A DNA stretch of 44,185 nucleotides, taken from the IMG/VR virus record IMGVR_UViG_3300045988_018548, one strand, 5' to 3'. This DNA comes from a virus (taxonomy: Duplodnaviria; Heunggongvirae; Uroviricota; Caudoviricetes). Shown piece after piece: positions 1 to 44,185 of this stretch. Positions within the stretch are counted from its first letter, which is position 1. Every line of letters begins with the position of its first letter. Under the pieces are notes generated by a model. It did no database searches and was not told where the DNA came from. It worked only from the letters and a program-made list of their open reading frames with translations. The position numbers and the translations under genes were made by a program.

Positions 1-119
1 ATGCTTCGATATCTGTGATTTTCATTTCTCTCTACTCCGTTCTCGTTGTCGATGGAGTAAATATAATAGGGTCGAGGGTAATAGTCAACTAGTCATTGCA
101 GAAAATAGATAAAAAAAAT
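1..119. repeat. terminal direct repeat, exact copy of 44067..44185
   Basis: 119/119 nt identical at both window ends; length matches a common assembler k-mer, so probably circular-assembly overlap rather than a biological terminal repeat. Confidence 0.9.
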
Positions 120-3536: not shown

Positions 3537-3704
3537 TCACCTCGGATTCGCAACAGACAACACAACAGACAACACAACAGACAACACACCAGCTTTCCAC
3601 GCCCGCCACGCGAGACGCGTCTTGACGTTCAGGTACTCTTTCTTCGAACCCTTGTTAACGGGCAGACCCTCGACAACGGCCCACCGTTCGAATGCTTCTT
3701 TCAT
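3537..3704 (-). CDS. small hypothetical protein with C-terminal (VLSV)x3 repeat
   Basis: 55-aa ORF not in track (below 60 aa); stop overlaps downstream start; contains the 12-bp tandem repeat. Confidence 0.3.
   Translation of the reverse strand: MKEAFERWAVVEGLPVNKGSKKEYLNVKTRLAWRAWKAGVLSVVLSVVLSVANPR
3552..3587. repeat. 12-bp tandem repeat x3 (aacagacaacac)
   Basis: Three perfect contiguous copies read directly from sequence. Confidence 0.9.
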
Positions 3705-4198: not shown

Positions 4199-4232
4199 GT
4201 GAATAGTGTCCTATTATATTGGGGTGTGCAAG
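4199..4232 (-). promoter_or_regulatory. class II conserved promoter motif (TTGCAC-N17-CACTAT on minus strand)
   Basis: Minus-strand reading TTGCACACCCCAATATAATAGGACACTATTCAC; near-identical to motifs at 26307 and 35924. Confidence 0.5.
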
Positions 4233-4540: not shown

Positions 4541-4586
4541 TACCAGTAGCATCTTTTGTATCTTAGTAACTTTGTGTTCGGTTTTG

Positions 4587-4874: not shown

Positions 4875-7163
4875 ATGTCCGATGTAATTTTATCCTACTC
4901 GTGGTCTCGTCGCAACGCGCGTGCAGAGAAAAAGGATATAAACGTCAGAACCACCCACACGGCAACACTGGACGACCTGAAAGAGCTAATCAAGCCGCTT
5001 GATGCTGTTCGTGGCGGGATTAACCCGAAGACCGCACCTGGCTATATCACTGCCGCGTGCGACTCGGCACACAGCACCGTAAAAGACCCGGAAACCGGTG
5101 ACTTTAAGCAAGCGCGTAAAGGCTTCTTCTATCGCTGCGATGCGTCTGTAAGCAAATCGTCGCTGGCGTATCTGGACTTCGACAGTGCAACACCGGAAGA
5201 GTATCAGGAAGCGGTGCGCCTGGTTAAGCGCAGCCGCCTGGTTATGTGCCTTTACACCACGGCGTCACATACCGATGAGTCCCCACGCTTTCGGGTCGTC
5301 ATGCCGCTTGCCCGCCCGGTTGAAGGCGGTGACATCATCCGCGTTCGTCATGGATTGCTAGAGCACTTCTTCAAAGGCATGGGGGCGGACCGCAGCGGGT
5401 TTACTCTGTCCCAGCCGATGTACCTGCCACCAGTTGGCTCGCAGGTTATCTGGTCGCGCCGCAACGACCTGATTGACCCGGACGAATTACTGGAAGGCAT
5501 CCCCGCCGTTGACGTTAGCAGCGCATCGGATTACCAGATACCGGAAGAACTGCGCACCGCGTTTACAGATGCGTTTGAAGCACTGGCATTCGAGTACGGC
5601 GGCATCATGACGCCGCGGGGCCTGAAGATGCCCGCTACGCCGGAACACGCAGAAAACTACAGCGACCCGACGCCGCGCCCGGACGACTTCCTGCTGTGTT
5701 TCCCGCGTGAAGGGTACGAAGCGCCGAACGTAACCATGATTCATGACACTGACATCACGGCGACCGAGGGCATGTCACCGAAGGAGGTGTGGAAGTATGC
5801 GTGCGACGCTACCGGGCTGCCGTTCAGTGAAGTTGCAGAGGCTATCGGATGGGGCGCGCGGGAGTCCGTTTCATGCAGCCTCGACGACCTGGAAGATGAT
5901 GACGAGGACTCAGGGGAGGACGAGGACTCAGGGGAGGACGAGCTACCGGAACCGTTAAAGGCTGATTTCGTCGTTGAGGGGTACATGCCGTCTGATTGCA
6001 TATGGGATATCGTCGGGGAGTCCGGTACGTATAAATCCTTCTATACGCTGGGGATGATGTACCTCAGCGCCGCCGGATACCGGTTTGCGGGGGCGGACAC
6101 CCAGCGTTGCCACCATTTCTATATCGACGGGGAGGGTGGCGCGGCTACTCGCACCCGTATCGACGCGCTCGCGGCTAAGTATGGCGGGGAAGGTAAAGAT
6201 TATGTACATGTTATCGATATGGGCGAGGTCGGAAAACTGAAAAGCCTGATTAAGTTAATGCGTGAAACTGCTGGCGACGAGCCAATCGGCATGGTTGCGT
6301 TCGATACTCTCAACCAGACACTGGCTCTGACGATTGATAAGTTCGACGAGAACAGTTCATCGACGGCAATCGGTATGGGTAAGGTTATCGCCATCCTGAA
6401 AGAAGTACGTGACGCGACTAAAGCTGCGGTGGGCGTCGTCCACCATACACCGAAGGGCGGAAAGAAAGCCCGTGGCAGCGGGGCGCTGTATGCGGGTGTC
6501 GACGTGGAACTGACAATCGAACGTGCAACCGACCGCCAGATAAACGTATACCACTCTAAGTTTAAGCACGGCCCTCAACAGAAAACGGTTGGCATGGTAC
6601 TTGAGTCAGTACAGTTCCGTGAAGCACCGCCACCGAAAGAGTATCGCGCTGTCGAGTTCCTCGGCAGCACCGAGGGGTACGGCACAATCGTAAACCTCGA
6701 CCTGCCCGAGCCACACAAGGCGCTTGTATTGATGCCGTGGGGCTTCGAACCGTTCAAGACTGACGAGGAGAAAGAACGGGAAGAAGGGCTGCCGAAAGAA
6801 GGTAAAGAAAACGTACGTAAAACCGTAGAGAACGCTGTCAACAGCTCGGAGGCCACGATACTGGCAGCGTTTGAACTGGCGGAAGGAACCTACAACGGCA
6901 ACGAAGGCATCACAGTCGCAGCAGCTAATAAGCTCGCACAGTCAGACCCCAACGCAAAGGCGTTTAACTCCAAAGAAGCCATAGAACGCGGGAAGATTAA
7001 GAAAATGGTTGAGGCTGGGTATCTTGTTCCGGGGACTGACGAAAACAATCAGATAATCCCTGGCCGTTACAGGCTGAACACCCGGATAACTGATAACAAG
7101 ATTCCGAAGACAATATACGAACCGAATGAGATGCTGATAGTGACAGAGGAGGATTTGGAATGA
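4875..7163 (+). CDS. bifunctional primase-helicase (AEP-type primase N-terminus, RecA-like P-loop helicase C-terminus)
   Basis: 762 aa; N-terminal LDFD and TTASH motifs; Walker A GESGTYKS; Walker B-like MVAFDTL; acidic linker between domains. Confidence 0.8.
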   Translation: MSDVILSYSWSRRNARAEKKDINVRTTHTATLDDLKELIKPLDAVRGGINPKTAPGYITAACDSAHSTVKDPETGDFKQARKGFFYRCDASVSKSSLAYLDFDSATPEEYQEAVRLVKRSRLVMCLYTTASHTDESPRFRVVMPLARPVEGGDIIRVRHGLLEHFFKGMGADRSGFTLSQPMYLPPVGSQVIWSRRNDLIDPDELLEGIPAVDVSSASDYQIPEELRTAFTDAFEALAFEYGGIMTPRGLKMPATPEHAENYSDPTPRPDDFLLCFPREGYEAPNVTMIHDTDITATEGMSPKEVWKYACDATGLPFSEVAEAIGWGARESVSCSLDDLEDDDEDSGEDEDSGEDELPEPLKADFVVEGYMPSDCIWDIVGESGTYKSFYTLGMMYLSAAGYRFAGADTQRCHHFYIDGEGGAATRTRIDALAAKYGGEGKDYVHVIDMGEVGKLKSLIKLMRETAGDEPIGMVAFDTLNQTLALTIDKFDENSSSTAIGMGKVIAILKEVRDATKAAVGVVHHTPKGGKKARGSGALYAGVDVELTIERATDRQINVYHSKFKHGPQQKTVGMVLESVQFREAPPPKEYRAVEFLGSTEGYGTIVNLDLPEPHKALVLMPWGFEPFKTDEEKEREEGLPKEGKENVRKTVENAVNSSEATILAAFELAEGTYNGNEGITVAAANKLAQSDPNAKAFNSKEAIERGKIKKMVEAGYLVPGTDENNQIIPGRYRLNTRITDNKIPKTIYEPNEMLIVTEEDLE
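5901..5942. repeat. 18-bp tandem duplication (gacgaggactcaggggag x2.3) in primase-helicase acidic linker
   Basis: Perfect contiguous copies encoding DEDSGE DEDSGE. Confidence 0.85.
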
Positions 7164-7304
7164 ACATCTACGATTTTATAGATAACCCGTTTAAAGCAGT
7201 GAGGGCGGGATACCGCCCGTCATACCTGACATGTGTTTCCGCGATAAGCGGCCACTGGTGGACTTTTTTGTGTGTATACGGCGGGGAGTTTTGCGGAGTT
7301 TAAA
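7161..7304 (+). CDS. small hypothetical protein
   Basis: 47-aa ORF; start overlaps primase-helicase stop; GAGGAGGA RBS. Confidence 0.3.
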
Positions 7305-32271: not shown

Positions 32272-32511
32272 TTATTCCTCTGACTTACGGCGACGACGCT
32301 TAGTACCACCGCCGTTGTTGTGCGCTTCTTCGTTGTCCGGTTGAGTCGCAACCAGTTCATCCGCTTCTACCACACCGCGAACAGGCATCACCTGACCATC
32401 AACACCGCGAACAGGCATCACCTGACCATCAACACCGCGAACAGGCATCACCTGACCATCAACAACGTCAACGTGGGTGTATTTTTCGCGGATTACATAA
32501 TTATCTACCAT
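32272..32511 (-). CDS. small protein with three DGQVMPVRGV repeats
   Basis: 79 aa; contains the perfect 30-bp tandem triplication; basic C-terminus. Confidence 0.4.
   Translation of the reverse strand: MVDNYVIREKYTHVDVVDGQVMPVRGVDGQVMPVRGVDGQVMPVRGVVEADELVATQPDNEEAHNNGGGTKRRRRKSEE
32371..32460. repeat. 30-bp tandem repeat x3 (aacaccgcgaacaggcatcacctgaccatc)
   Basis: Copies 2 and 3 identical, copy 1 differs at one base; in-frame. Confidence 0.9.
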
Positions 32512-43945: not shown

Positions 43946-44091
43946 TTCTCATCTCCTGCATAAGCTGCTTTCAGTGTCTGCATCGCGGCGAACCAGAACG
44001 CGTCCGCCGGAATGCTGTTGCTCAGGTTACCAACGGCGATGCGTGCCATCAGTTGTGCGTCTTTGAATGCTTCGATATCTGTGATTTTCAT
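43942..44091 (-). CDS. small hypothetical early protein, first gene of leftward early operon
   Basis: 49-aa ORF with RBS GGAG; start codon lies inside the 119-bp terminal repeat. Confidence 0.3.
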   Translation of the reverse strand: MKITDIEAFKDAQLMARIAVGNLSNSIPADAFWFAAMQTLKAAYAGDEK

Positions 44092-44185
44092 TTCTCTCTA
44101 CTCCGTTCTCGTTGTCGATGGAGTAAATATAATAGGGTCGAGGGTAATAGTCAACTAGTCATTGCAGAAAATAGATAAAAAAAAT
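44067..44185. repeat. terminal direct repeat, exact copy of 1..119
   Basis: 119/119 nt identity to window start. Confidence 0.9.
44126..44154 (-). promoter_or_regulatory. minus-strand promoter TTGACT-N17-TATATT for the leftward early operon
   Basis: Hexamers at 17-bp spacing; lies within the terminal repeat, so also present at 60..88. Confidence 0.5.

Follow-up and report, generated by a model that had tools for sequence, protein, structure and literature searches.

The closest described counterparts of the locus examined here are tandem microduplications produced by replication slippage. Slipped-strand mispairing classically starts from a unit bracketed by short direct repeats. The known slippage microduplications in disordered or low-complexity coding sequence consist of perfect head-to-tail copies of a unit whose length is a multiple of three, and microhomology flanks the unit in their single-copy relatives. 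The segment concerned is compositionally biased and predicted to be unstructured, and independent events recur at the same site. All of these features were also found at a locus in the window, that is, the whole stretch of viral DNA (Caudoviricetes; IMG/VR record IMGVR_UViG_3300045988_018548; 44,185 nucleotides) that was analysed. Nothing essential separates the locus from the known cases, and its own allele was not found in the other collections searched.

The locus lies in the linker between two domains of a replication protein, for which two further systems serve as comparison. Oligomerisation, flexibility and activity of T7 gp4 and TWINKLE are under the control of their interdomain linker, and changes in it can alter oligomerisation (PMC6423418). 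These systems combine a primase of the DnaG type (zinc ribbon and TOPRIM) with a structured, helical linker that packs against the adjacent subunit, whereas the acidic duplicated tract of the window protein is predicted to be structureless and no Zn_ribbon_DnaG or Toprim match was obtained in the protein with Pfam profiles. The helicase fold alone is common to them, and the relationship is one of analogy, not membership. The Prim-Pol (AEP)-PriCT-2-AAA_25 fusions of phages and plasmids share with the window protein the AAA_25 helicase family (RepA, 1g8y) and the order of the parts, namely an N-terminal priming module (putative in the window), a junction and a helicase. However, the N-terminal domain of the window protein has its own signature, YTTASHTxExPRxRV, and contained no Pfam Prim-Pol (PF09250) or PriCT match.

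Gene and domain organisation

The repeat is hosted by a gene on the plus strand (4875-7163) encoding a 762-aa protein. The ORF matched phrog_3228, named 'replicative helicase-primase', from end to end (E 6.3e-286), and the DNA of the gene was 86-91% identical to the counterpart in Escherichia phages K1G, K1H and K1ind2/3 and in many records named Kagunavirus. On this gene-level nucleotide identity, we assign the window to the genome of a K1G-like siphovirus, namely a Kagunavirus coliphage. A literature search for the Kagunavirus helicase-primase turned up no papers. The window also has a 119-bp terminal direct repeat, which resembles an assembly overlap.

The C-terminal part of the protein contains a RepA/DnaB-like RecA-fold helicase domain (aa 364-580; 5964-6614, plus strand). 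Pfam AAA_25 covered aa 364-529 at 62.2 bits, the curated cutoff being 27, RSF1010 RepA (1g8y) was matched at E 1.4e-14, and the best Foldseek matches of the structural model were RepA. The identity of the domain as an RSF1010 RepA-like helicase is solid, and the helicase is predicted to be hexameric.

The N-terminal domain (aa 1-325; 4875-5849, plus strand) is a putative primase. On homologue ranges, pLDDT and PHROG matches, it was divided into a core at approximately aa 85-215 and a second subdomain at approximately aa 225-325. The core had a pLDDT of 85-95 in the AlphaFold model. The motif D101-x-D103, located at the end of the strand formed by residues 92-102 in the model, was invariant down to about 20% identity, and S131-H132 and D172 were invariant in the close family. 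D101-x-D103, H132 and D172 may correspond to AEP motifs I-III, which comprise a DxD at a strand end, a conserved His and a third acidic residue. PHROG families named 'DNA primase' or 'DNA helicase' matched aa 87-208. Among the homologues, the domain was fused to three helicase/ATPase modules (AAA_25, VapE-like and DUF5906); relatives sharing it carried a PriCT-2 'primase C-terminal' domain ahead of the helicase, and paralogous architectures had Prim-Pol, RepB-primase or a DnaG zinc ribbon in its position. Full-length Foldseek alignments with BFVD proteins bearing the names Prim_Pol, PriCT-2 or RepB-primase (plus AAA_25) were suggestive, and searches of PDB folds with the full-length model gave only helicase-domain neighbours among the matches listed. 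Residues 1-340 had no match in Pfam, with the threshold relaxed to E 10, or in NCBIfam, and neither phmmer against the PDB nor two profile searches found a sequence relative of the domain among solved structures. An hhalign comparison with Pfam-verified Prim-Pol segments gave a probability of 1.2% and an E of 0.046, with the residues misregistered and a target profile of only 6 sequences. On balance, it is reasonable to regard the domain as a putative primase. An earlier note, prepared from the letters of the window alone, had called the protein a primase-helicase; the helicase part of that name was substantiated (AAA_25, RepA), whereas the primase part can be put forward on the PHROG naming, with no Pfam match.

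Between the two domains lies the acidic linker (aa 326-364; 5850-5966, plus strand), delimited by pLDDT and the lengths found in the family. It is composed of a conserved start, C334-S-L-D-D-L-E, a variable acidic tract and a conserved DELPEPxKAD. The start (C334-x-L/D-D-D-L-E) and the approach to the helicase (DELPEPxKADF) were kept down to relatives of about 25-30% identity, and the tract between them varied. When 1.84 billion representatives were searched with HMMER, proteins having only the N-terminal part matched aa 6-322 and helicase-only proteins began at aa 329-366; this modular break shows a domain boundary at the linker. An AlphaFold model built from 26 close homologues was too weak for use, at a pLDDT of 49.8. 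The model used here was based on 69 sequences including distant ones and had a pLDDT of 79.3; a second homologue search, limited to distant relatives, gave just 11 matches. In this model, the flanking domains were confident, and the only long low-confidence coil, aa 327-355, lacked secondary structure and had a pLDDT of about 34. The repeat falls almost wholly within this coil. Low pLDDT was taken as a proxy for disorder.

Structure of the repeat array and comparison of assemblies

In the raw sequence, positions 5901-5942 read GACGAGGACTCAGGGGAG GACGAGGACTCAGGGGAG GACGAG, head to tail. Tandem Repeats Finder gave a period of 18, 2.3 copies (2.33), 100% matches and no indels, with GACGAGGACTCAGGGGAG as the consensus. 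A unit scan allowing up to 3 mismatches detected only two full copies in the window, at 5901-5918 and 5919-5936 on the plus strand, which are identical and each encode DEDSGE. The partial third copy, GACGAG (DE; 5937-5942, plus strand), corresponds to a 6-bp microhomology that was already in place before the duplication, as indicated by the linker alignment and the 18-bp spacing in relatives. The array is in frame with the ORF and is translated to DEDSGEDEDSGEDE, namely DEDSGE-DEDSGE-DE, at aa 343-356. Shuffling put the expectation for the unit scan at 0.01, and none of 100 shuffles reached two; by chance, approximately 1.6e-10 exact self-matches of 24 nt at a fixed offset would be expected in 44 kb. 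The earlier note had described an 18-bp tandem duplication of 2.3 copies at 5901-5942 that yields DEDSGE-DEDSGE in the acidic interdomain linker. Both points held, the former in Tandem Repeats Finder and the raw sequence and the latter in the ORF frame, the domain boundaries and the residue positions. An antisense ORF at 5741-6001 (SSSSPESSSSPE...) presumably shadows the acidic tract encoded on the plus strand and was not counted as a gene.

A second length change was observed in the same tract. GATGAT at 5895-5900 (plus strand) contains one Asp codon more than most relatives. Accordingly, in the DNA alignment of the linker with about 40 IMG/VR loci, the window was 21 nt longer than most homologues, of which 18 nt came from the duplication and 3 nt from the extra GAT.

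The window derives from metagenome-type assemblies and the allele is unique to one lineage, as would be expected if the duplication were an artefact of assembly or sequencing that does not exist in the phage. However, the 42-nt array was identical in three assemblies: the window, IMG/VR 3300045988_011391 and ENA ERZ28648507 scaffold_73. The three are near-identical yet distinct, as they differ by SNPs at 4208, 5452, 6935 and 8895, by a 1-nt indel at 7264 and by a 6-nt indel at 4580-4585; the copy number of the array was nevertheless 2.3 in all of them. Furthermore, seven contigs on record, including ERZ28648507 scaffold_73, encode exactly the 762-aa protein of the window, and the protein of 3300045988_011391, an allele differing by W193L, likewise carries the duplication. 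Since three distinct assemblies and two protein alleles have it, the duplication is inherited in a small lineage, and an artefact is very unlikely. The array keeps the reading frame and, being shorter than a usual short read, should be spannable by a single read. Analogous duplications, described below, are also present in the cultured, individually sequenced phages FSL SP-101, Bas70 and Bas72.

Distribution of the duplication among relatives

The alignment with homologues that had been proposed as a check on the duplication was carried out at the protein level with 120 homologue cluster representatives. The second DEDSGE unit was observed in the window alone. In the linker DNA alignment with about 40 IMG/VR loci, relatives had a single GACGAGGACTCAGAGGAG followed by GACGAG. 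In most of 97 GenBank phage records, the counterpart of the 105-nt query span measured 84 nt; a few had 87 nt, and none exceeded 93 nt. Shorter alleles were thus found in all 120 homologue clusters, in the approximately 40 IMG/VR loci and in the 97 GenBank phage records. A degenerate 30-mer over the duplication junction had contig 3300045988_011391 as its sole match in IMG/VR, and was absent from the metagenome and species-genome collections searched. The nearest single-copy relative was only about 90.7% identical in the helicase-primase gene. At the level of sequence, these comparisons show the duplication to be derived and private to the lineage of the window.

The segment from Cys334 to Phe365 was 30 aa long in the window, the longest of 121 proteins; the family ranged from 16 to 30 with a mode of 23. 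The lengths were 16 (2 proteins), 18 (28), 20 (1), 21 (2), 22 (12), 23 (64), 24 (4), 27 (7) and 30 (1, the window). The segment contained 17 acidic residues (D/E) among 30 in the window, versus 13 among 23 in the modal allele.

The origin of phage lambda lies within gene O. An 18-bp period is iteron-like, and an interdomain site in a gene of the replication-initiation type recalls the lambda case, a resemblance that serves as a lead only; the repeat could accordingly be imagined as a cis-acting DNA element, such as origin iterons placed where a replication gene encodes a linker. Against this, the window contains no degenerate copies beyond the two full ones, the array lacks an AT-rich flank (the GC content around it is 0.58-0.60), and no inverted repeats of note were found nearby. 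In nearly all relatives, the unit occurs once or, in the 18-aa and 16-aa alleles, is missing, which rules the repeat out as a conserved origin. For these reasons, we rejected origin iterons as extremely improbable.

Origin of the duplication

Most single-copy Kagunavirus loci already have GACGAG at 18-bp spacing; elsewhere in the helicase-primase gene, exact runs at an offset of 18 were mostly 1-4 nt. At the position of a GAG (Glu) codon in most relatives, both copies in the window have GGG (Gly), and two of the homologues (P0021 and P0034) have DSGE with a single copy of the unit. Therefore, the GAG to GGG substitution predates the duplication. The two copies of the window are undiverged. The age of the duplication can be bounded only loosely and intermediate states are missing, because the nearest single-copy relative is no closer than the identity given above.

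From these observations, the following course of events may be proposed. The ancestral single-copy state would have been GACGAG-GACTCAGrGGAG-GACGAG, a 6-bp direct repeat at 18-bp spacing, in GA-rich DNA coding for the disordered acidic linker. During DNA synthesis, the second GACGAG would have mispaired with the first, and 18 nt would have been copied again to leave 2.33 perfect units. For the protein, the outcome of such slipped-strand mispairing would be a gain of six residues (DEDSGE), or seven when the neighbouring extra Asp is counted, with four more acidic residues. Slippage appears to be active in this lineage, judging by a 12-bp repeat at 3551-3592 that varies by one unit among the near-identical genomes described above.

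Duplications were also found in the same linker in other phages. In Salmonella phage FSL SP-101, a Jerseyvirus with 58% protein identity, CGACGAGGAAGACCTGGC occurs 2.6 times as an 18-bp tandem duplication. Among the Jerseyvirus loci, the relatives of FSL SP-101 were 18 nt shorter and had a 9-bp GACGAAGAA microhomology at 18-bp spacing. In the clade of Bas70, Bas72 and KMB35, GAGGACTCAGAG occurs 2.5 times as a 12-bp tandem duplication that gives DSEE-DSEG. Judged by these sequences, the linker tract has been struck independently at least twice more, beyond the lineage of the window. Slippage as the mechanism is well supported by the sequence comparisons, and the suggestion in the earlier note that linker length may evolve in this way gains support from the bracketing microhomology, the recurrent duplications and the range of lengths in the family.

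The same recurrence raises the question of selection for longer or more negative acidic linkers, in which case mutational bias alone would not account for it. Such linkers could tune the coupling of primase and helicase or the assembly of the hexamer, reinforce an acidic tract that binds a partner or mimics DNA, or allow evasion of host factors. The three tandem expansions that arose independently in this tract of Guernseyvirinae-type phages accord with selection, as do the acidic character that the tract always has, its position after a C-x-D-D/E-D-L-x-D/E motif conserved to relatives of about 25-30% identity, the retention of the duplication by no fewer than three distinct genomes, with two protein alleles among them, and the control that the interdomain linker exerts on oligomerisation and activity in T7 gp4 and TWINKLE (PMC6423418). 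However, the expanded alleles are rare, being present in 1 of the 121 proteins for the window and in 7 of the 121 for the 12-bp duplication. The modal 23-aa allele is dominant across diverged clades, and shorter alleles of 16-18 aa are also common. Recurrence is the one positive sign of adaptive tuning, and the repetitive GAC/GAG coding sequence with its built-in microhomology explains it equally well. We therefore consider selection for longer linkers unlikely.

A conserved DDL(E/D) motif precedes the acidic tract and recurs at the extreme C-terminus of Guernseyvirinae-type replication proteins. The tract could be conceived of as a mutational hotspot under selection, where a partner-binding or autoinhibitory segment would have its length and charge adjusted by the duplications (18 bp in the window, 12 bp in the Bas70 clade and 18 bp in FSL SP-101), for example in adaptation to different hosts or host factors. 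This version appears to us decidedly improbable.

Instead, the duplication is in all likelihood a lineage-specific in-frame tandem microduplication that arose by replication slippage in a disordered acidic linker and is probably tolerated and nearly neutral. The latter part follows from the span of 14 residues in linker length among relatives and from the predicted lack of structure; on these grounds, the change in length would most likely have been of little consequence to the protein. By analogy, some effect of the longer linker on function is nonetheless possible, because the linker of T7 gp4 and TWINKLE controls oligomerisation (PMC6423418).

Discussion

We regard the allele as real and as an ordinary microduplication private to one lineage, of low significance when taken alone. 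It provides a clean and well-documented case of a slippage-driven change of length that affects a disordered linker in a replication protein essential to the phage, at a tract struck on separate occasions in three lineages. Annotators should not take the duplication for an error. The linker site is a hypervariable in-frame marker, which could separate closely related strains of Kagunavirus and Jerseyvirus. Furthermore, if the length or charge of the linker affects the coupling of primase and helicase, the naturally occurring alleles, which span 16 to 30 residues, would constitute a ready-made test series.

Tandem duplications in the linker of other phages

The acidic interdomain linker of the helicase-primase contains tandem duplications in other phages as well. 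In Salmonella phage FSL SP-101 (KC139511), an 18-bp tandem duplication of 2.6 copies, at 1975-2020 of the homologous locus L031, encodes DEEDLA-DEEDLA and lies in the linker of the orthologous Jerseyvirus helicase-primase, the same site as that in the window. LSPA1 and other Jerseyviruses had 18 nt less than FSL SP-101 at the linker, and the FSL SP-101 duplication is regarded as an event independent of that in the window. Escherichia phage Bas70 (PQ850619) carried a 12-bp tandem duplication of 2.5 copies, GAGGACTCAGAG, at 88-117 of the homologous locus L045, encoding DSEE-DSEG; the same duplication was observed in Bas72 and KMB35. These three phages belong to a different Kagunavirus clade and carry the duplication in the same linker, which likewise represents an independent event.

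Other repeats and indels in the window

Two further tandem repeats were found in the window. The 12-bp repeat CAACAGACAACA, present in 3.5 copies at 3551-3592, falls in a 55-aa minus-strand ORF (3537-3704), whose product it gives a C-terminal (VLSV)n stretch. When near-identical genomes were compared, the IMG/VR contig 3300045988_011391 was one unit short of the window; accordingly, the copy number of this repeat is polymorphic within the lineage. The other, a perfect 30-bp repeat of 3.1 copies at 32372-32464, yields VDGQVMPVRG three times in a 79-aa minus-strand ORF (32272-32511), which has structural-looking genes on both sides.

Two indels also distinguish otherwise near-identical genomes. 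Six nucleotides at 4580-4585 (GGTTTT), upstream of the small HTH gene located before the helicase-primase, were present in the window and missing in scaffold_73 (ENA ERZ28648507), and a 1-nt indel was located at 7264, shortly downstream of the helicase-primase stop codon. In addition, the 119 bases at the two ends of the window (1-119 and 44067-44185) were identical and are probably where a circular or terminally redundant assembly overlaps itself.

Domains and motifs of the helicase-primase

The N-terminal domain (aa 1-325, window 4875-5849) possesses a distinctive signature, YTTASHTxExPRxRV, together with DxD. Domains of this type were found fused to AAA_25, VapE-like or DUF5906 (D5-like) ATPases, and the domain is a candidate uncharacterised priming domain. 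In distant relatives, a Cys/His-rich motif, GRGYxVxCPNxxxH...FxCxH....C, occurs at the position of aa ~245-292 (window ~5610-5750) and resembles a zinc-binding module. In the window's own clade, other residues appear to stand at most of these Cys/His positions.

Some homologue records (P0037 and P0038, for example Escherichia phage CR01) list a "replicative DNA helicase" of 456-468 aa. These proteins covered only about 60% of the 762-aa query with 95-97% identity, suggesting that the gene models are split, truncated or differently started in some relatives.

At the linker start, an acidic D-L-E motif (D338 L339 E340, window 5886-5894) was invariant, and a second invariant D-L-E was observed at the extreme C-terminus (D760 L761 E762, window 7152-7160). 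The consensus of distant relatives was CTDxDLxD at the junction and DDLxD at the protein end. The two D-L-E sites may constitute a repeated short linear motif, a candidate for partner binding.
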